DNA from: a virus
Lineage: Duplodnaviria > Caudoviricetes
Strand: one strand, 5' to 3'
Length of the DNA stretch: 64,000 nt
Virus record (IMG/VR): IMGVR_UViG_3300045015_000053
The notes under the pieces: generated by a model
Told to the model about the DNA's origin: nothing
The model's database searches: none
The model's input: the letters and a program-made list of their open reading frames with translations, nothing else
Made by a program: the position numbers and the translations under genes
In this document: positions 5,696 through 45,503 of the stretch, one piece after another
Numbering within the stretch: the first letter of the stretch is position 1
How the letters are laid out: every line of letters begins with the position of its first letter

Positions 5696-6586
5696 TTAGT
5701 CGTGGTGCTTTTGATTGGCCGCACTCAGGTATCCGTCGTCTCTCTCGGCCCGGCTTCTGAAGCGGTGCTTGGTCAAGAACTTGCCGAACTTGGCGAGCCG
5801 TCCACGCGGGTTCGGGACGTGAGCCTGTCCGAGACTCGGCAGTAGGTGTTCGAGTTCCTTGAAGTCGTGCCATTTTTTACCGTCGAACCCGGCGATCCAA
5901 ACGCTCGTGTCATCTCGAATGACGCCCTTCGCGGCGAGCTTGGCGAGATCCTCAAACTTCACGTCCACCTTACGCCCGAATGCGTTGATGTAAGCCGCGT
6001 TTTTGCCGGCGAATTCCTCGGCACCCAAAGTCGGTGTTGTAGCCGCGACGTACTGGTGCATGTCATCTTGCACGTCTTTGTGTTTGTACGGCAGCCAATC
6101 GTCGTATCCGTACCGCTTTACCATCGTGTCGGGTTTGATCCACCTTTTGGCGACCGCGTCAGCGAACTCTTTAGACCCGACGAATTTGTAGGCGTGTCCG
6201 TCGAGGTAGGCCCACCACACCGTCTTGTCGTTCGCCACGCCCTTGCTGACCCGGCTGAAAGGGAGGTACTTCTTGGCGTCTTTGATCTGGTTCCAGTTTT
6301 GCTCACCTTGTACCCAAATCATGTCTTCGGGATGAACTTGGTTGATCCGGTACAACTGAACGATTTTGATGCCGTCCATTTGCACCGGGTTGACGCCGTC
6401 TTCTCGCGGCTTGTCGGGCCGGTACAACCAGAACATGCCGCGCTGGTCTTTTCGCTTGCCGCGTTCGCCGAGGCCACCCTTGATCGCGCCGTAAGCAGCA
6501 CCGCCCAACGCGGCGGCGGCGAGTGCCGTACCGACGATTTCGTCCAGTTGCCGCTTCTCTTTCCCCCATTTCACGAATGATTCCAT
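5696..6586 (-). CDS. Late protein with three GYF_2-like repeats
   Basis: MESFVKW leader, Ala/Gly-rich segment, repeated I.(P)D(T).VW..G...W units; TATATA at 6621-6626. Confidence 0.65.
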   Translation of the reverse strand: MESFVKWGKEKRQLDEIVGTALAAAALGGAAYGAIKGGLGERGKRKDQRGMFWLYRPDKPREDGVNPVQMDGIKIVQLYRINQVHPEDMIWVQGEQNWNQIKDAKKYLPFSRVSKGVANDKTVWWAYLDGHAYKFVGSKEFADAVAKRWIKPDTMVKRYGYDDWLPYKHKDVQDDMHQYVAATTPTLGAEEFAGKNAAYINAFGRKVDVKFEDLAKLAAKGVIRDDTSVWIAGFDGKKWHDFKELEHLLPSLGQAHVPNPRGRLAKFGKFLTKHRFRSRAERDDGYLSAANQKHHD

Positions 6587-10894: not shown

Positions 10895-11059
10895 GTGAAC
10901 GACAAATTCGACCCCCGAAAGTACATCGAAGAACTCGCCTATCGTCTTTGGCAAGAGGCGGGCGAGCCTCCGAACAGTGCTTTGCATTTCTGGTTGGAAG
11001 CCGAACGGCAATTCGAGCGAACGACCGGCTCCGGTCGCGGCCCGCAAGGTCGTCAATAA
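10895..11059 (+). CDS. Small DUF2934-like protein (54 aa, not in ORF track)
   Basis: IEELAYRLWQEAGEP..HFWLEAE; RBS GAGGGG before GTG. Confidence 0.7.
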   Translation: MNDKFDPRKYIEELAYRLWQEAGEPPNSALHFWLEAERQFERTTGSGRGPQGRQ

Positions 11060-11111
11060 ACGCAATTCGGATCACTATGATAGGTTTGTCGCCGCCCTTC
11101 ATAGTGAGAAC

Positions 11112-11657
11112 ATGGAAACACCAGAAACATTCGGCCCGCCTATCGTTCCGTCTTCCATAGACGAACCCGAACAACGGCCGTTGGCCGTCGCGCTCGTTTT
11201 TGACATCTCCCGTTCGGCCTACGGCAATCAGCGTGTTGTGGATCTGTTCAAGTCCGCGTTGGTGAAAAAGTTCGCCAACATGGAGTACGACAACGTTCTT
11301 TTGCTCGGCAACGAGCTACACGAAGATCCGGGTCACGCCGTCGCCGCGATCAGGGAGTACAAGAACCCCGTCCGACGTTTTAACCAAATGCTCGGCGAAG
11401 CCGTTCGGTCGCTGATGCACATCGACCGTTTTTACGTTCGCCGTCTGGTGGTCGTGACCGATCAGTTTGCACAGCCCGATTTGACGATTGTCGAGTCGGC
11501 GATCAACAAGAACCAAACGTCAATGTCCGACATTGACTTCTACTGTTTAGCCTTCGGGCCGCAGTACGAGCGTGCGGTCGCCAACTGTAGTTGGGACATT
11601 TTCCGCCACGCCGAACCACAAGACATCGAAGCCGCAGTAAACGAGGTGTGCAGTTGA
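11112..11657 (+). CDS. vWA-like protein
   Basis: VALVFDISRS (MIDAS-like DxSxS), LVVVTD, alpha/beta pattern. Confidence 0.5.
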   Translation: METPETFGPPIVPSSIDEPEQRPLAVALVFDISRSAYGNQRVVDLFKSALVKKFANMEYDNVLLLGNELHEDPGHAVAAIREYKNPVRRFNQMLGEAVRSLMHIDRFYVRRLVVVTDQFAQPDLTIVESAINKNQTSMSDIDFYCLAFGPQYERAVANCSWDIFRHAEPQDIEAAVNEVCS

Positions 11658-12472
11658 ACACAACACAAAGAGTACGAATCAAGAAAGAGAATGTTGAAGT
11701 CGATGGTTTCGTGGGGCTGGAGTCCACGATCAAGCACCCCGTTTTCGGTCGCAGTCCTGTTGACATCATCGTCCCGTTCCACGGGCAATACAAGCGACTC
11801 ATTACCTTGATCGAGAGCGTTTTGAGGGTGCGGAGCAACCCGTATTTGCTCACTCTGGTGGATGACGGTTCGCCCAATCCGGGCTTCCTCAAACAACTGG
11901 AGAAAGTCCCCCAACTCAACCGGATCAGGTTGGATGAACAAGTCGGTTTCGGCGCGGCTCTACAGGCCGGCTTTCAAGCGACCAAGCAACCGTTCGTCAT
12001 GTTCATGCACAGCGACTGCGAAGCCCTCGACCCTTCTTGGATGTTGAGCCTCGGTCAAACCCTGATCGAACTAGAAGAAAAAGGCGTCGGGATGGTTTCG
12101 GCACGCTCGGACAATCCGTTTTGTGATGACACGCGGTTTGAAGGGAAGCTGAATTCTACCTCCGAACACGTCATTCTTGAATCGGGCGAATCCATGCCGC
12201 TCTACTGCGCCATGTGCCGACGCGGACTGTTCAACAAGATCGGAGGGTTCATCAAGAGCTATCCGTTCGCAATGTACGAGGACCAAGAGTTGTCGTACCG
12301 AATGGGCGTCCACGGCGTCAAGCAGGCGATCAGCGGGACCAGTTGGATCAAACACCACGCCAATGCCACTATTAGTGAAGTTTCGCGATCTAACCCGTTG
12401 GCTCTGGGGCAGATGGAGAAGAACTACGACCGCTGTGTCGCGGACATGAAGGCTTGTTTGCCCAAAAAGTGA
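11654..12472 (+). CDS. Glycosyltransferase family 2
   Basis: VDIIVP, LVDDGS, GFGAA, MHSD and ED motifs. Confidence 0.85.
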   Translation: MNTTQRVRIKKENVEVDGFVGLESTIKHPVFGRSPVDIIVPFHGQYKRLITLIESVLRVRSNPYLLTLVDDGSPNPGFLKQLEKVPQLNRIRLDEQVGFGAALQAGFQATKQPFVMFMHSDCEALDPSWMLSLGQTLIELEEKGVGMVSARSDNPFCDDTRFEGKLNSTSEHVILESGESMPLYCAMCRRGLFNKIGGFIKSYPFAMYEDQELSYRMGVHGVKQAISGTSWIKHHANATISEVSRSNPLALGQMEKNYDRCVADMKACLPKK

Positions 12473-12524
12473 TGACGCGGGCTATATACCTGTACGAGCT
12501 AGGCCAGCTTTACAAGGAGAAACC

Positions 12525-12680
12525 ATGCGTTGCAAAAAGCCTGACGGCACTTTCACGAACGCGACTTGGTTGGTGTTTTACCCGACCTGTCCGAGAACCA
12601 ATGTCAACCACCTCTGCAACCAGCTTGCGGGTGCTTACGTTGCGGCTGTCACCGTGTGCGGTCAACGACTGTTCCGTTGA
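12525..12680 (+). CDS. Cys-rich 51-aa peptide in its own transcription unit (not in ORF track)
   Basis: TATATA 12483-12488, RBS AAGGAG, ATG 12525, terminator 12703-12730. Confidence 0.65.
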   Translation: MRCKKPDGTFTNATWLVFYPTCPRTNVNHLCNQLAGAYVAAVTVCGQRLFR

Positions 12681-12702
12681 TCTGCGATCTGGAAACAAGA
12701 AG

Positions 12703-12730
12703 ACCCCGGCTACCGGAAGCCGGGGTTTTT
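12703..12730 (+). terminator. Intrinsic terminator
   Basis: ACCCCGGCT/AGCCGGGGT followed by a T run. Confidence 0.75.
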
Positions 12731-12815
12731 CGTTTTCCGTCGTGACAAACAGCGAATTTCGGTCTAGAGTGTCCGTCGTGACTATCTCGCCGTCAAACCG
12801 CGTCCGGGGTTCGTT

Positions 12816-13043
12816 GTGCTGCCAAACAATCTGCTCGACCAAGTGAGGAAGACACTTGGCGAAAATTCCCACACCCAGAAACTAAGGATCACCGCCGACG
12901 ACGAAGACGGAGTTCTCGTGTTACGCGGATCGGTTTCTAGTTATTACCTGAAGCAGATGTCACAAGAATCAATTCGGGGTTTGCTGGACGATTATGATCC
13001 GCGCCCCGTTCTCCGCAACCTCATTGAAGTAAACGGGAATTGA
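12816..13043 (+). CDS. BON-domain-like small protein
   Basis: LVLRGSVSSYYLKQMSQE..LRNLIEV. Confidence 0.65.
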   Translation: MLPNNLLDQVRKTLGENSHTQKLRITADDEDGVLVLRGSVSSYYLKQMSQESIRGLLDDYDPRPVLRNLIEVNGN

Positions 13044-13053
13044 CATGTCAATT
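13038..13053. promoter_or_regulatory. 16-bp perfect palindrome, possible operator
   Basis: AATTGACATGTCAATT. Confidence 0.4.
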
Positions 13054-13132
13054 GACTTCGTTTATCCGCCTCGAAATTCGCCTTCCATTTCATAGATACC
13101 TTCGACAATAGGGTCTATGAAATGGAGGAAGT

Positions 13133-13579
13133 GTGTCTTACTTCAAAGAACGACGTGATCGTCTTTACAGTGCTGGTTTGTGTGTCAATTGTGGAGTTTC
13201 GCCACACACTGCCACGGCAAAGATGTGCGATGAGTGCGGGATCAAAGCAAGGGCTGCTTCCAATGCGTGGCGTGTGGCCCACCCAGATAAGTGGAAAAAG
13301 CTGAAGAACAACAACGCCAAAAAACGGCGAAACGAAACAAGGTTGGAACTGCTTAAAAAGCTCGGTGGCAAATGTGTCTGTTGTGGCGAGGAAAGAGAGC
13401 AGTTTTTGCAGATAGACCATGTCAACCGGGACGGTAGTCGGCATCGAAAGGAATGTCATAACCGTGTTGTCTTGGACTTGCTGAAGAATCCAGACAAATA
13501 CCAAACAAGGGTGTTGTGTGCAAATTGTCACTTTGCCATAACCGTATATGGAGCCTGCCCTCATGAGTCTTCTGAATGA
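13133..13579 (+). mobile_element. Second free-standing HNH-type endonuclease gene
   Basis: AT-rich; CVCCGE..LQIDHVNRDG..VLCANCH; related to 7881-8591. Confidence 0.7.
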
Positions 13580-14177
13580 GTATGTCTTCCCGCCTCGTCC
13601 GGGCGGCAGTATTACGGCCGGCGACCTGTCATATTACGAAAAGACTGGTCAGTGGCTGGTACAGCCGAAGTTCAACGACACCCGCCTGCTCACGCACATT
13701 CGGCCCGATGGAACCGTGGTTTTCTGGACCCGGCACCGCACTCGGCCCACCAAATTTGACGCCGCTGGCTTCAGCATCGAAGTCCTGAAGCACCTCAATC
13801 TCGCGCCGGGCCAGGAATACTGGCTCGACGGCGGCGTGATGAATCGCGAGAAAGACGCGGGTGGCGAATTGGTCTTTTTCGACGTTCTGTGCGTCGGGAA
13901 GTACCTGTTTCTGAAGGGCCAAGAGGACCGACTTGCTGCCCTGAGTACAATTTGTCACAACCCGGAGACGTTCAACGAACAGGGAACGGCTCTGAAGATC
14001 GGCGGGCGACTGTACATGGCCCCGATTTTCCGTAAAAACTTCTCCGAACGTCTCAAGTCGCTCTTGACAGTCAGCTACATTGAGGGCTTAATGCTCAGAA
14101 GATGTAGCTCGCAGCTTGACAACTACGGTGTCAAGCAATACGAGGCTTCTTGGATGAAGCGTTGTCGAGTGAAATAG
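13563..14177 (+). CDS. ATP-dependent ligase-like nucleotidyltransferase domain (no OB domain)
   Basis: QPKFNDTR (motif I), LDGG, FFD, EGLML, WMKR. Confidence 0.7.
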   Translation: MSLLNEYVFPPRPGGSITAGDLSYYEKTGQWLVQPKFNDTRLLTHIRPDGTVVFWTRHRTRPTKFDAAGFSIEVLKHLNLAPGQEYWLDGGVMNREKDAGGELVFFDVLCVGKYLFLKGQEDRLAALSTICHNPETFNEQGTALKIGGRLYMAPIFRKNFSERLKSLLTVSYIEGLMLRRCSSQLDNYGVKQYEASWMKRCRVK

Positions 14178-39921: not shown

Positions 39922-40049
39922 TGACACTCTTTGCTGAACAAGTATCCGGCCTCCAACTGTTTTTGGCGGTCGTTGTGGGTTCCTTCTGTGTCATGGGATT
40001 TTCCGCCCTGATCTTGGGGCTGGCGAAATGGATTCAAGGTAAGTCATGA
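39921..40049 (+). CDS. 42-aa single-TM protein (not in ORF track)
   Basis: Coupled on both sides (TGATG, ATGA). Confidence 0.6.
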   Translation: MTLFAEQVSGLQLFLAVVVGSFCVMGFSALILGLAKWIQGKS

Positions 40050-40768
40050 AAGAATATCCAAGCATCCTCGGTGTAAACGCACATGGTTGCCCCGGATTGG
40101 GACAATCTGCAATCGCTTTCAAGAAATATGACGGTTCCAACCTCCGCTTCGAGTGGAACCCGAAGAAGGGTTGGCACTTGTTTGGCACTCGGCGTCGTCT
40201 CTTCGACAAGGCCGACCCAGAGTACGGCGCGGCCATCGACATCTTCCTGAACAAGTACGGCAGCGGTCTTGAAGCCGTCATCAAGAAGGACAAGCACCTG
40301 CGGCAAGCCCGCGAGATCATCGTCTACGGCGAGTTCTTCGGGCCGTGGAGCTTCGCCGGGCAGCACGATCCGCAACACCCCGCCATGCACCCGAAGTGGA
40401 CGGCCGGGGACCACCTTCCTTACAACGGCGGGCCAAACGAACCGCTGGACGTAGTCATCTTCGATGTCAACGTCCACAAGAAGGGGCTGATGTCCCCGCG
40501 AGAATTCGTCAACACGTTCGGCCATCTGCCTATCGCCGAGATCGTGTATCAGGGGAACATGAATCAATCCTTCATCAAGGACGTGAGGGAAGGGACACGC
40601 ACCTGTCTCGGATGGGACATGAACATCCCGATCTTCGAGGGCGTGGTTTGCAAGGGGCTGACCGGGAAAGCGCCGCATGGGATTTGGATGGCGAAAATCA
40701 AAACCAACCATTACCTTTCCGAACTCAAGCGGCGGTTCGAGAAGGATTGGGAACAGTTCGGGGAGTGA
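40046..40768 (+). CDS. RNA/DNA ligase-type nucleotidyltransferase (Rnl2-like)
   Basis: KKYDGSN, YGEFFG, IFDV, FEGVV, MAKIK. Confidence 0.75.
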   Translation: MKEYPSILGVNAHGCPGLGQSAIAFKKYDGSNLRFEWNPKKGWHLFGTRRRLFDKADPEYGAAIDIFLNKYGSGLEAVIKKDKHLRQAREIIVYGEFFGPWSFAGQHDPQHPAMHPKWTAGDHLPYNGGPNEPLDVVIFDVNVHKKGLMSPREFVNTFGHLPIAEIVYQGNMNQSFIKDVREGTRTCLGWDMNIPIFEGVVCKGLTGKAPHGIWMAKIKTNHYLSELKRRFEKDWEQFGE

Positions 40769-41297: not shown

Positions 41298-41567
41298 ATG
41301 ATGGACGGTCCTCGCTATGTCGTCGGCCTTCGCGATCCGAAACAGAGCAATCTGTACAAGGACATGATCGAGGGCGAGAAAGAGGGCGAGGCCAAGCAAC
41401 AGGCCGAGGAACTGGCGGCGAAGGAAGGCCGCGCCACGATAGTCTGGGATCGCAAGAACCACGAAGTGATTCACAGGGTCGCGGGCAAGGACGATCCTGT
41501 TGAGAAACAAGAAACCAAGCCCGAACCGAAAAAACGGGGAAGGCGTAAACAAGAGGACGCTTCCTGA
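41298..41567 (+). CDS. Hypothetical protein
   Basis: Phage codon style. Confidence 0.6.
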   Translation: MMDGPRYVVGLRDPKQSNLYKDMIEGEKEGEAKQQAEELAAKEGRATIVWDRKNHEVIHRVAGKDDPVEKQETKPEPKKRGRRKQEDAS

Positions 41568-41582
41568 CCCTATAATACCTTG

Positions 41583-41915
41583 CCTCTGAAACTTATGAGG
41601 AACATTCGGGAGCCGAAGGAGAGACAGTTGCTGGTGACCGGACTGATCCGAGGGTAGATTTCCCCGGATCGGGTTGAAGGGCATATGGGTCTGGTGTGGA
41701 TGGGCTGTTCCCCTACCGGCGGCTTGCCGCCAACGCACATGACCCAGAGCAGCAGCGCTACCCCGTCCAAGAGTCCCAGATGTTTTGGGTTGAGGACGCG
41801 CCAACTTACCATGTTGTAAGTAGCGTTGTGGCTACCGCTAACGTGGCGGTAGGATCGAACCAACCCTTGCCGAATGGGGGTCAACACCAGCAGGAAACTG
41901 CTGGTGTTTCCTTTT
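41583..41915 (+). ncRNA. Candidate structured non-coding RNA of unassigned family
   Basis: TATAAT at 41571-41576, nested helices, terminator at 41883-41916. Confidence 0.55.
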
Positions 41916-41916
41916 T
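41883..41916 (+). terminator. Intrinsic terminator
   Basis: AACACCAGCAG-GAAA-CTGCTGGTGTT then TCCTTTTT. Confidence 0.75.
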
Positions 41917-41950: not shown

Positions 41951-42541
41951 ATGCTTTCTTTACAAATGGCCGGTTACGGGATGGGGATGGTCGGGGTCGC
42001 GAATAACGCGAACCTCAACGCATTGTCCTACGGGATCAGCCAGTTGATCAGTTGGGGTTTGGGCTGTGGCGCACACCGTCTGACCTTCAAGGCCGACAAG
42101 AACCGCGTCGGGATTTCGGTCTTCATGGACCCCGAAGTCGAGCCGCAGGTGATTTCGGCGGCAGGGTGCTGCACGATGCAGGGCTTGCACGAGATGGGGC
42201 TGCTGCCGCAAGACATCCCCCAGTTTGAGCGGATGAACATGGACGGCGCGACCAACACGGCGAAGGACGGGCAGTCGCGGTTCTCGTTCAAACAGGGCGA
42301 GGGAATCCTGATCCAGAACTACAACGTGAGGCCAGAACTCTCGCTCGCGACGTGGGCGTTCGCCCACGCCGACCACATCACCGGCTTCATCTGGCGGGGT
42401 GCGAGGGAAATCAAGGTCTTTCACAGCATGAAGCTGACTCAGATCTACATGAGTCCGGCGATTGCCGATGACGTGGCGAAGACCGCGATGGCGGGCGAGC
42501 AGAACTATCCGCAGGACACGCTGATCTCCAGCATCAAGTGA
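41951..42541 (+). CDS. Hypothetical protein
   Basis: GTCTATACTGAC promoter at 41918, RBS AGGAG, ATG 41951. Confidence 0.75.
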   Translation: MLSLQMAGYGMGMVGVANNANLNALSYGISQLISWGLGCGAHRLTFKADKNRVGISVFMDPEVEPQVISAAGCCTMQGLHEMGLLPQDIPQFERMNMDGATNTAKDGQSRFSFKQGEGILIQNYNVRPELSLATWAFAHADHITGFIWRGAREIKVFHSMKLTQIYMSPAIADDVAKTAMAGEQNYPQDTLISSIK

Positions 42542-42729: not shown

Positions 42730-43140
42730 ATGCGTAAGAAACTGACCAAGACGACGACCGAGGCAATCGGCTATCTGACGCAGCAGGACGCACTGGATAA
42801 GTGCTACACGCAGGAGAACAACGCCTTCTTCGACGGGCGTTACGGTCGGCCGGACGATCTCCGCAAGGTGCGGTGCGTGATCAACAACATGAAACCCGGC
42901 ACCGAGATCCGCGCCCTCATCTACAAGTACAACTACCACGGGACGGTTTTGGGGTTCCGCTACACGCCCCGACGCGGCTGGACGATGGGGATGCTGCTCA
43001 AGAGTGGCAGCGTCAAGGACGTGAGCATCGACCCCCGCGACTGGTTCGACGGGGAGAAGACGGTCTTCGTTTACTGCGGGAAGACCGTCTACGCGATCTA
43101 CAGACACGGCTACCGACTCGCACTCGAACCCGTCGCTTAA
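42730..43140 (+). CDS. Hypothetical protein
   Basis: RBS GAGG. Confidence 0.7.
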   Translation: MRKKLTKTTTEAIGYLTQQDALDKCYTQENNAFFDGRYGRPDDLRKVRCVINNMKPGTEIRALIYKYNYHGTVLGFRYTPRRGWTMGMLLKSGSVKDVSIDPRDWFDGEKTVFVYCGKTVYAIYRHGYRLALEPVA

Positions 43141-45503
43141 TCGCAACACAGATCCAAGATGTCGCTCAGATACGGGTTGGTTGATTCTGCGGCGACCACA
43201 CGACGTTTCTTCTTCTTAGGCACCACCGCTCCGACTGGCTTCGTCGCCGGCCCGGACCCCGCACCGCCACCGATTGCGGCAGCGTACTCGTCGTCAAACG
43301 CCTTCCGTCTCGGACCAATGTGTTGGTCCAGGGCGGAAGGGGCAGTAGTCATCGGCAGCGGAATGCGGCCGGACAGTTGGTCGTTCGGCGCACGCCCCTT
43401 GTCAGTCGCCAAGTAGTGGGGCGAACGGTCGTCCCGCTTGAACGGCGTAAGCCCGTCAAAATCTTCATCTTGGTACTTCTTGGCGACGGCGGCGTGGTAG
43501 GCGTCCTTGTCGGCGTCTTCCCACTTGATCGCCCGACGTTTTTCGGTCGGCTTGACACCTTTCATCAGTTCTTCGCGGGTGATGCCGGCACGCTCTGCGT
43601 CACGGATCTCACGGTTAATACGATTGGACAGGTCGCGTCTCGCTTGCGCTTGGAACACACTTCGGGTGAGTTCCATTGGAGACAGACCGTCCGGGTTTTC
43701 GTCACTCTTGGAATCCGGCGTTTGCGCGAGGTCATATATTGCGTTCGACCGACGCCGTTGAGCGTTCGGGCCGAAGTAGTTCACAATCCCCTGTTCGATC
43801 CTATCGGCACGAGCCAGTAGTTCTTCTTTCTCCTCGCCCGTTGCTGTAGCCGCTTTAGCACGCAGTTCAGCCACCAGTTTGGTGTCTTTTGCCTGACGAG
43901 CCGCAACGGTCTTCAAACGCTGTGGGTGGGCTTTAGATGCCGCGATGACCCATCCCTTGTTCTCCTCTTCGTATCGCAGGTGCGGGTCGTCGGGCTGGAC
44001 GACGAACACTTGCTTGCCCTGTCCGTTCGATTGAACGTACTTGGCGTCACCCTTTGCGGCCAGACCGATGATCACGCCGGTCTTGTTCTTGCCCTTTTGC
44101 ATGTCGTCAATGAACCGCAAGTCGTGAATGTCGCCGCTCACGATGCGGTAAAGCTTGCCGTTCTCACCACGCCACACCTTCGGCAGCTTGTACGGGCCGT
44201 TTTCGGCTCCGCTATTCGGATCAACGGCGTACTCTTTTCCCTTTGGGTCTTCTTTGAACTCAGGGGCGACGTACTCGGTGTTGCTTTTCCTGGCCCGCGT
44301 TTGGGCGCGAGCTTCCATAGCCCTCTTCGCTTTGGCGGGGTCGTAGTTCTTCTCCGCGAACGCGAACACCATAGCGACGTTGCCGCCGTTGTCCAGCAGT
44401 TCTTCCATCTGGTGCAGGTTGGTCTTCTCGGAATAAGAAAACGTGAGGTGGTAGTTCGCCGGCCACTTGCCGCCGCCCGACTTCATGGCCTCGGCGTGCT
44501 TCATGGCGCGGCCGATGACCTTCGTGTAGTCGTAGAACTGCACCTCTGGGAAGTGACAGAAGATCGACTTCTTCTCGTTGGGGTCGGGCGGGCAGTTCAT
44601 TGCACGAGCTTTCGGGCTGCGTTCCACAGCCCCCTCGTACCCCGGCAGTTCTTTGCCTTTGGTCTTCGGGTTCTTGCGTTGGTAGGTGAACCAGTATTTT
44701 TCGGTTTCCCACGGAATGTCGGACGTGCCGTTCAGTCTGAGGCCGAAGTTGAAGCCCTGACTGTGCGATTCCGCTGCGGCGTGTTCGACTTCTTGGGCGA
44801 GCCTCGTGAGGGCCGCGTTCTTGTTATAGGCGAACATGAACGTGCGCCGCATACGACCGGACGTTTTGACGCCCATGAAGCCGGGGTTGCCGGCCACGTC
44901 GAGACAGGACGCTGCACATTCTGGGGTGTGAGCGGAGCAGGTGTTGCACCCTGAGAAGCCGGCCGGCAACAAGTGCATGACGGCGTTCTTCATCGGCCGC
45001 ATCATGCCGTGGTGCGGGTTTGCGACGGCGTGCGGGTATCCCTTTTCGGTCTTCGGGTTGTTGTCGCCGGGGGAAACCAGAGACAAGCCGGCGTGCGGAT
45101 TCTTCAGACGCCGCTTTTTATCCCTACGCGGGCGGAACATGTCTTTGATGTCGTCTTGGTGCTGGTCCCACTGTTGACGGGTGAAATTGACTAGCTTGTT
45201 TTTCTCGTCATCCTTCTTGGTTTTTGACGTGCCGACATCAACATCGGCGTCCACCGAGTCGTCATCTTCGTCGTCCTCGACTTCGACCGGCTCCTCTCGC
45301 TTCGCTTTCTTCCTCTTCGATTCGACAACGAGGTTGCCGGCCATACTTGCAAATTCTGGCAGGTTTTCCATAACGTCATCATAGTCGGTGGAAATGCCGA
45401 GTTGCTCGTTGAACGAGAGGTGATAGGCCCACTCCTCGTCGGTCAAACGAAGATCATCGGCCCAGTCTGTTTCGCGGAAGAAGTCTCTGAAGTTCATTTT
45501 CAT
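43137..45503 (-). CDS. GP88-family (radical-SAM-like) protein with long extensions
   Basis: HLLPA..SG.N.C..HT.EC...C, RLNGTSDI.WE, QFYDYTK, NYHLTFS, GD.HDLRF; MNFRDFFRE leader; TATATA at 45533-45538. Confidence 0.75.
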   Translation of the reverse strand: MKMNFRDFFRETDWADDLRLTDEEWAYHLSFNEQLGISTDYDDVMENLPEFASMAGNLVVESKRKKAKREEPVEVEDDEDDDSVDADVDVGTSKTKKDDEKNKLVNFTRQQWDQHQDDIKDMFRPRRDKKRRLKNPHAGLSLVSPGDNNPKTEKGYPHAVANPHHGMMRPMKNAVMHLLPAGFSGCNTCSAHTPECAASCLDVAGNPGFMGVKTSGRMRRTFMFAYNKNAALTRLAQEVEHAAAESHSQGFNFGLRLNGTSDIPWETEKYWFTYQRKNPKTKGKELPGYEGAVERSPKARAMNCPPDPNEKKSIFCHFPEVQFYDYTKVIGRAMKHAEAMKSGGGKWPANYHLTFSYSEKTNLHQMEELLDNGGNVAMVFAFAEKNYDPAKAKRAMEARAQTRARKSNTEYVAPEFKEDPKGKEYAVDPNSGAENGPYKLPKVWRGENGKLYRIVSGDIHDLRFIDDMQKGKNKTGVIIGLAAKGDAKYVQSNGQGKQVFVVQPDDPHLRYEEENKGWVIAASKAHPQRLKTVAARQAKDTKLVAELRAKAATATGEEKEELLARADRIEQGIVNYFGPNAQRRRSNAIYDLAQTPDSKSDENPDGLSPMELTRSVFQAQARRDLSNRINREIRDAERAGITREELMKGVKPTEKRRAIKWEDADKDAYHAAVAKKYQDEDFDGLTPFKRDDRSPHYLATDKGRAPNDQLSGRIPLPMTTAPSALDQHIGPRRKAFDDEYAAAIGGGAGSGPATKPVGAVVPKKKKRRVVAAESTNPYLSDILDLCCD

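Follow-up and report, generated by a model that had tools for sequence, protein, structure and literature searches.

The window (the whole 64,000-nt stretch of phage DNA that was analysed) contains an interval (41571–41916) that is flanked by an 89-aa gene and a 196-aa gene, is itself free of genes, and has a -10-like box at one end and an intrinsic terminator of conserved structure at the other (Table 1). A preliminary description had proposed that this interval encodes a highly structured candidate noncoding RNA (ncRNA) of about 300 nt. For this RNA, we infer the start site, the ends, and the expression itself from the sequence. The window also contains a gene for an Rnl2-type RNA ligase and an amber tRNA, which is the only tRNA that ARAGORN finds in the window. 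The 89-aa protein upstream of the RNA has a basic tail (KKRGRRK) and belongs to a family that counts 66 representatives at E ≤ 0.001, and its matches include repeated stretches within proteins of >1000 aa. The GP88-family protein anchors a syntenic block and carries an invariant four-cysteine cluster (C186, C189, C196, and C200). The window holds no paralog of the RNA and no similar stretch elsewhere.

Table 1. Positions of the RNA elements and of neighbouring genes in the window.
Feature	Position	Strand	Description
Rnl2-type RNA ligase gene	40046–40768		
89-aa gene	41298–41567	+	Upstream flank of the RNA
-10-like box TATAAT	41571–41576	+	Follows the 89-aa gene's stop codon directly; putative RNA promoter
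5' leader hairpin CCUC...GAGG	41583–41600	+	Clade-specific; outside the conserved core
P1, 5' strand, CAUUCGG	41603–41609	+	Pairs with 41870–41876; closes the whole fold
Joiner GAAGGAGAGACA	41615–41626	+	Single-stranded, purine-rich, conserved; holds the consensus Shine-Dalgarno word; leads into Pb
Pb, 5' strand, GUUGCUG	41627–41633	+	Closes domain 1 with 41750–41756
Variable arm Pc/Pd	41634–41685	+	Hairpin 41643–41672, loop UAGAUUU
Pe, Pf, Pg, Ph	41686–41746	+	Pe 41686–91/41741–46; Pf 41694–98/41734–38; Pg 41702–13; Ph 41718–31
Pb, 3' strand, CAGCAGC	41750–41756	+	Covariation
Domain 2	41757–41832	+	Pi 41757–61/41828–32; Pj 41764–68/41794–98; Pk 41775–89; Pl 41799–41825 (loop CAUGUU)
Pm hairpin UACCGC-UAACGUG-GCGGUA	41833–41851	+	Double changes in 3 of 6 pairs
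Joiner GGAUCGAAC	41852–41860	+	Single-stranded, conserved; leads back to P1
P1, 3' strand, CCGAAUG	41870–41876	+	Followed by GGGGUC
Intrinsic terminator	41883–41916	+	11-bp stem, GAAA loop, U-rich tail (terminator scan)
196-aa gene ("family A")	41951–42541	+	RBS AGGAGA; TATACT box 41921–26
GP88-family gene	43137–45503	-	PF17338; 788 aa
Amber tRNA	58393		

The collection of homologs, which the preliminary description had suggested as a check, yielded four further distinct full copies of the RNA, in the loci L001, L029, L010 (identical to L011), and L009. Together with the copy in the window, five distinct full copies were thus available, plus a copy in L012 that is truncated at the contig end. 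The L001 copy was reached via the 196-aa protein (70% protein identity), and nhmmer with the window copy as the only query matched it with an E-value of 9e-71. The L029 copy was reached via a profile of the 196-aa family (nhmmer, 2e-48). Relatives of the GP88 protein at 55–59% identity led to L009, L010/L011, and L012, and the L010 copy was matched by nhmmer at 2e-22. The more distant L009 copy matches the shared pattern and scored 73.7 bits with the covariance model R1, with L009 itself being among the five training sequences of this model. The P0089 contigs have gene-free gaps of ~390 nt at the corresponding place. Copies came from the samples SRR26912484, SRR35367210, SRR23617261, ERZ27240680, ERZ794914, SRR22198310, SRR22198311, SRR23617167, GCA_040384205.1, and JGI 3300045421 and 3300078752.

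At every locus, the RNA heads the same block of genes, which comprises the 196-aa gene, (the 136-aa gene,) the GP88 gene, a 211-aa gene, and a 667-aa gene. The upstream neighbours of the RNA (89, 106, and 151 aa) are not related to each other across the loci. More distant GP88 loci (L013–L017 and L028) have neither the block nor the RNA, and the loci with relatives of the 89-aa protein (L004–L008) do not have the RNA. One of these, the unrelated phage contig L004, has a 1.1-kb gene-free stretch (1322–2464) that has no similarity to the RNA of the window and may hold other RNAs. L029 corresponds to contig JAWVGZ010000010.1 (586,525 bp) of the NCBI assembly GCA_040384205.1, with both the block and the RNA present. 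Two readings fit this contig: a phage genome of very large size, or a phage that was integrated into a bacterial genome or sorted into the same bin. In L010, aminoacyl-tRNA synthetase genes flank the RNA block (454–1638 and 10937–13594): a class I IleRS-like gene (885 aa) is located one gene upstream of the RNA, and the other gene encodes a 394-aa class II synthetase (tRNA-synt_2b plus HGTP_anticodon).

Searches beyond these loci returned no further copies. Using blastn at a distant setting, the window and L029 copies had no match in 50,697 phage records. Exact and degenerate patterns retrieved no true copy from IMG/VR, as the seven matches were coding sequence of unrelated phages. IMG/VR searches via the neighbouring proteins led only to L028, which has a GP88 relative with 48% identity; neither this locus nor its 189-kb record contains a copy. 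In a metagenome contig collection, neither the pattern nor the family A protein gave a match, and the pattern-fitting JGI contig L003 was not returned either. Six pattern matches in a genome contig collection had no extended similarity to the RNA, and the two that were inspected were coding sequence. The covariance model R1, which covers domain 2 plus Pm, found no new member in 13 sources. Contigs from four DNA runs contributed short, near-identical pieces only. Their sole variant, G41755T, was found at a depth of 2.2 in one lake metagenome contig (run X8), where it would change a U·G pair of Pb to U·U; at such a low depth, it may be an error.

The interval overlaps open reading frames of 44 aa (+) and 105 aa (-), and its Shine-Dalgarno word is followed by a UUG codon at 41628. 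An alternative reading is that the interval is a small protein-coding stretch, or else a non-functional spacer. Between the window and L001, substitutions in the RNA were distributed over the three codon positions as 20/11/11, and the indels were 2, 1, 2, and 2 nt long, which breaks the frame. The five flanking genes showed an excess of third-position substitutions (~1:1:4, e.g., 22/20/89). Protein-level conservation of the overlapping frame, which the preliminary description had named as evidence against an RNA, was thus not seen: the third codon position showed no bias, and the indels were 1 or 2 nt long. The UUG codon is UCG in L001 and L010, with its pairing partner changing along, and no conserved start codon or ORF was found 3' of the Shine-Dalgarno joiner in the five copies. 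A small ORF after the Shine-Dalgarno word was dropped for this lack of a conserved start codon. The minus-strand ORF had no match in Pfam or PHROG. Identity to L001 was 86% in the RNA core, 70–85% in the five neighbouring genes, and 62% in the spacer after the terminator, and the difference between the RNA and this true spacer argues against a spacer function for the interval. A coding stretch or a spacer is therefore hardly credible.

The plus strand of the interval folds with an energy of -139.3 kcal/mol, compared to -120.9 ± 5.5 kcal/mol for dinucleotide shuffles (z -3.3). The corresponding z-scores were -4.3 for L010 and -7.5 for L009. The opposite strand of the window copy also folds strongly (z -4.4). 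We assign the RNA to the plus strand because G-U pairs are numerous, the terminator has a U-tract, and the -10 box is present on this strand.

The five sequences were read by hand, and each helix was verified by a script. The resulting structure model of the window RNA has 80 base pairs. All five sequences allow complementary pairing in thirteen helices; the only mismatches are one A·A in P1 of L001 and one U·U in Pj of L029. The architecture is closed: P1 joins the ends around a four-way junction with domain 1, domain 2, and the hairpin Pm. Domain 1 consists of Pb, the variable arm, and a three-way junction formed by Pe/Pf, Pg, and Ph. Domain 2 consists of Pi, Pj/Pk, and Pl. Pb abuts Pi, and Pi abuts Pm.

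The length of P1 differs between the copies. It is 7 bp in the window, 10 bp in L029 (GCUUGAAAGG/CCUUUCAAGC), 8 bp in L009 (CAAGUGUG/CACACUUG), 6 bp with one A·A in L001, and only 4 bp in L010. When the duplex was compared with shuffled sequences, p was 0.24 for the window, 0.04 for L029, 0.0065 for L009, 0.21 for L001, and 0.16 for L010. P1 has moderate support and is the least secure helix; taken singly, it does no better than chance in the window, L001, and L010. The sequence GGGUC is found 3' of P1 in the window, L001, L010, and L012. All cells of Pb were paired (100%), with four sequence versions and double-sided changes in three of its seven pairs. The Pd stem covaries from GAUCCG/CGGAUC in the window to ACUUGG/CCAAGU in L029 with the loop retained, and a single short hairpin replaces the whole Pc/Pd arm in L010 and L009. 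A conserved internal loop of 2x2 nt (UG/AU) connects Pe to Pf, and this stack closes the three-way junction with Pg and Ph. Five different complementary versions were found for Pe as well as for Pf, and GGTCTGG and ACATGAYC are invariant in the Pe–Ph region. The Ph loop is CUUG in the window and UGAAAG in L001, a change that is typical of the behaviour of RNA hairpin loops, and the Ph of L029, L010, and L009 is larger. Pl also occurs in five versions (ACUUAC/GUAAGU, AUUUAC/GUAAAU, UCCCAC/GUGGGA, CCCUAC/GUAGGG, and CAGUUCG/CGAAUUG). L009 is the exception in domain 2, with rebuilt Pj/Pk. The stem of Pm is CAACCGG/CCGGUUG in L029 and CUGUCGG/CCGGCAG in L009.

Covariation was quantified by pair counts on MAFFT alignments of the five sequences, which all belong to one clade; the shuffle controls ignore this relatedness. 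In domain 2 plus Pm, 87% of the cells were paired, and 11 pairs were changed on both sides, compared to 4.6 ± 1.4 in shuffled alignments (reached in 0 of 500). With the partner strand slid, pairing fell to 38–58%. In Pb, Pd, and Pe, 98% of the cells were paired (28–56% with the partner strand slid), and 9 pairs were double-changed, compared to 3.5 ± 1.4 after shuffling (0 of 500). RNAalifold found 13 compensated pairs in the closest pair of sequences, the window and L001. Selection has thus preserved the pairings of the helices while their letters diverged. The preliminary description had named a lack of covariation as evidence against the RNA; the double changes instead exceed those of all 500 shuffles.

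The preliminary description had listed nine helices, and all of its complementary segments are present where it had placed them. Seven of the nine were confirmed on the five homologous sequences. CATTCGG/CCGAATG (P1), GATCCG/CGGATC (Pd), TGGGTC/GACCCA (Pe), ACTTAC/GTAAGT (Pl), and CTACCGC/GCGGTAG (Pm) show compensatory changes; the GGCGG hairpin (Ph) was also confirmed, as was GTCC/GGAC enclosing CCCA/TGGG (Pj and Pk), which varies little. The other two found no support. GGGTTG/CAACCC crosses Pb, has a G·A mismatch in L001, and is missing from L029, L010, and L009. AGCGCTA/TAGCGTT is displaced by the covarying Pb, Pi, and base of Pl: the relatives support Pb, Pi (GCUAC/GUGGC), and the pairing CGC/GCG at 41799–801/41823–25. 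Pb, Pf, Pg, and Pi had been overlooked and are now added. The proposal of a highly structured ncRNA of about 300 nt is thus borne out by the fold energy, the terminator, the four further distinct copies, and the compensatory changes.

The preliminary description had also assigned the RNA its own -10 box and a strong terminator. Both the TATAAT hexamer and the terminator are present, and the terminator scan reported an 11-bp hairpin at 41883–41908 followed by a T run. A scan for a full sigma-70 promoter (-35 plus -10) at the RNA gave no match, as TATAAT has no -35 partner. The second part of the same proposal, that the next gene has its own promoter and RBS, agrees with the TATACT box and the AGGAGA sequence ahead of the 196-aa gene.

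Because the promoter consists of a -10 hexamer only, transcription of the upstream operon possibly yields the RNA as its 3' end. In that case, the RNA would be a structured 3' UTR with no promoter of its own, and it would protect the upstream transcript from 3' exonucleases or give rise to a 3'-UTR-derived RNA by processing. The upstream gene and the RNA are not separated by a terminator, and in all loci the RNA element with its terminator closes the respective upstream operon. However, the upstream genes are unrelated between the loci, yet the RNA is conserved, and its 80 conserved base pairs and invariant joiners far exceed the needs of a stabiliser. Moreover, each of the five copies has a -10-like hexamer in this position (TACAAT in L001 and L010, TATTAT in L029, and TGGTAAAAT in L009). 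We consider a 3' UTR very unlikely.

The position of the RNA, always upstream of the same block and in the same orientation, with its terminator ~35–70 nt ahead of the next start codon and with an upstream neighbour that is not conserved, would also fit a cis-acting 5' leader. Such a leader would bind a ligand, a protein, or the polymerase and so control read-through of the terminator into the downstream block (B, A, and the 136-aa gene), either like a riboswitch or as a processive antitermination RNA of the HK022 put type. Like the leaders that govern terminators (riboswitches, T-box, and HK022 put), the RNA lies between a promoter-like box and a terminator, upstream of a conserved block. Unlike these, it has no conserved antiterminator and is far larger than put. 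The antiterminator candidate UGCUGGUG (41629–36), which could form 8 bp with the 5' half of the terminator (41886–93), is lost in L001 and L029. The terminator stem is wholly rewritten yet paired in L001 (four double changes), and it is likewise rewritten with the pairing retained in L029, L010, and L009. In L029 and L010, one or two extra hairpins part the core from the terminator. At the other end, the 5' leader hairpin is missing in L010, and L009 has another hairpin in its place. The pairings that were dropped include an antiterminator pairing with Pb and one between AAGGAGA and the U-rich 3' tail, the latter because L029 has lost it. Further -10-like boxes (TATACT, TATATT, and TGCTAAAT) are located 3' of the terminator, ahead of the next gene. 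The Rfam models of riboswitches, T-boxes, and leaders did not match the stretch at E ≤ 10. Although it is the strongest alternative, a cis-acting leader is therefore unlikely. A separate gene is favoured because the terminator is kept though rewritten, the extra hairpins are present, -10-like boxes occur on both sides, and no antiterminator is conserved.

Strong divergence could also conceal that the RNA belongs to a known class (RNase P RNA, tmRNA, group I introns, SRP RNA, ROOL, GOLLD, or raiA, for instance). The Infernal search against Rfam that the preliminary description had suggested matched no family. With cmscan and Rfam 15 (4227 families), the whole window gave no hit at the gathering score, and only chance-level rows appeared for the stretch at E ≤ 10. 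The copies of L001, L009, and L010 matched no family at E ≤ 5. ARAGORN reported neither a tRNA nor a tmRNA at the RNA, so the earlier observation that tmRNA ends are missing was borne out by ARAGORN and Rfam alike. The same is true for the missing group I core: no group I or group II intron model of Rfam matched, and the flanks are separate complete genes, of which the upstream one varies between the loci. GAGGAACAUUCGGG resembles CR-I of RNase P, as the preliminary description had noted.

RNase P RNA (RF00010 and RF00011) resembles the RNA of the window in its length (~300–400 nt), its multiple junctions, its terminal closing helix, and a GAGGAA...GG sequence near the 5' end. The window RNA differs in having no conserved CR-I word, no CR-V, and no P4 pseudoknot, and it is not a member of this class. 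The doubt that the preliminary description had expressed about RNase P was justified, as the GAGGAAC...GGG motif reads GAGGUACACACGCA in L001 and has no counterpart in L010, where the RNA begins further downstream. RNase P RNA was rejected, since this word is the least conserved part of the RNA, has no CR-V partner, and is accompanied by no model match. With no Rfam model matching any of the four copies scanned, even at E 5–10, a divergent known class is highly improbable.

Long phage- or prophage-borne RNAs with intricate folds that were recognised by covariation, i.e., ROOL (RF03087), GOLLD, OLE, and raiA, are comparable to the RNA of the window. The latter differs in that it matches no Rfam model and is so far confined to one phage clade. 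Orphan RNAs of the ROOL type are some 600–800 nt long, compared to ~330 nt for the RNA of the window. ROOL, GOLLD, and OLE assemble into homo-oligomers that consist of RNA only (PMC12286853). YrlA-type Y RNA and tmRNA differ from the window RNA, which has no tRNA-like ends and matches neither a YrlA nor a tmRNA model. Full-text searches of the literature found no description of the RNA. The preliminary reading as an unassigned multi-junction RNA is therefore supported, given that no Rfam family matched and that the structure is kept by compensatory changes in the four further distinct copies. The RNA represents a previously uncatalogued ncRNA family, the carriers of which are so far only a single clade of huge, uncultured freshwater phages. 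Its newness consists in the absence of a matching catalogued family and does not extend to a demonstrated new mechanism.

The family A gene lies beside every copy of the RNA or one gene away. In L010 and L009, an extra gene of 255–258 aa is located between them, and in L012 a 195-aa gene with no detected similarity. Family A comprises 12 cluster representatives in 5.8 billion proteins, and its loci are the window, L001, L009, L010, L012, L018, and L029. Its invariant motifs are GCGxHR, DGQxR, GFxWRG, and KLTQ. No match to family A was found in Pfam or PHROG. The AF2 model of the protein (pLDDT 74.5) has two beta-beta-alpha-beta-beta halves and gave no convincing fold match (best Foldseek E 0.03; best VIA Z 6.1, with a de novo design). 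The Atlas model was poor.

Only two unpaired segments of the RNA are strongly conserved, and both are joiners of the central junction. In the first, GAGACAG followed by GTYGYYGG occurs in all five copies. The second, GGAUCGAAC, is identical in the window, L001, L029, and L010, and reads GGAUUGAAU in L009. By its letters, GGAUCGAAC is the exact complement of the common tRNA T-loop word GUUCGAUC. The 3' strand of Pm together with this joiner is similar to the helix 45 base of 16S rRNA and the GGAUC after it. The corresponding segment reads GCGGUAG-GAUCGAAC in the window (41846–41860) and CCGGUUG-GAUCGAAC in L029 (~5815–5835). The 10-mer match of Pm/joiner to 16S rRNA is about what is expected by chance and is only a lead. 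Two tRNA-related candidates were dropped: a tRNA-like reading of P1 and Pm, with 18 nt between them, and a T-arm on the minus strand, the stem of which is unpaired.

Taken together, positions 41583–41916 (+) probably constitute a stand-alone gene for a structured ncRNA of ~330 nt that acts in trans. The folded RNA would most likely be the RNA part of a ribonucleoprotein, or a docking RNA. The two nearly invariant joiners, AAGGAGAGACA with its perfect Shine-Dalgarno word and GGAUCGAAC, would serve as contact surfaces. The likeliest target may be the translation apparatus (the 30S subunit or tRNA); this is a guess from two short words, with a modest chance of being right. It is quite unlikely that the RNA is specifically a component of a translation take-over that docks on the host 30S subunit via the Shine-Dalgarno joiner and/or on tRNA via GGAUCGAAC, or that it is a self-assembling RNA-only particle in the manner of ROOL and GOLLD.

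Bacteria and phages have few long RNAs whose folds are both intricate and conserved, and those with a known role are mostly ribozymes, riboswitches, or cores of ribonucleoproteins. The RNA described here adds one from huge phages that is concrete enough to be tested, as its secondary structure is defined and two contact sites are candidates. If docking on the 30S subunit or tRNA were true, it could redirect or sequester the translation machinery.
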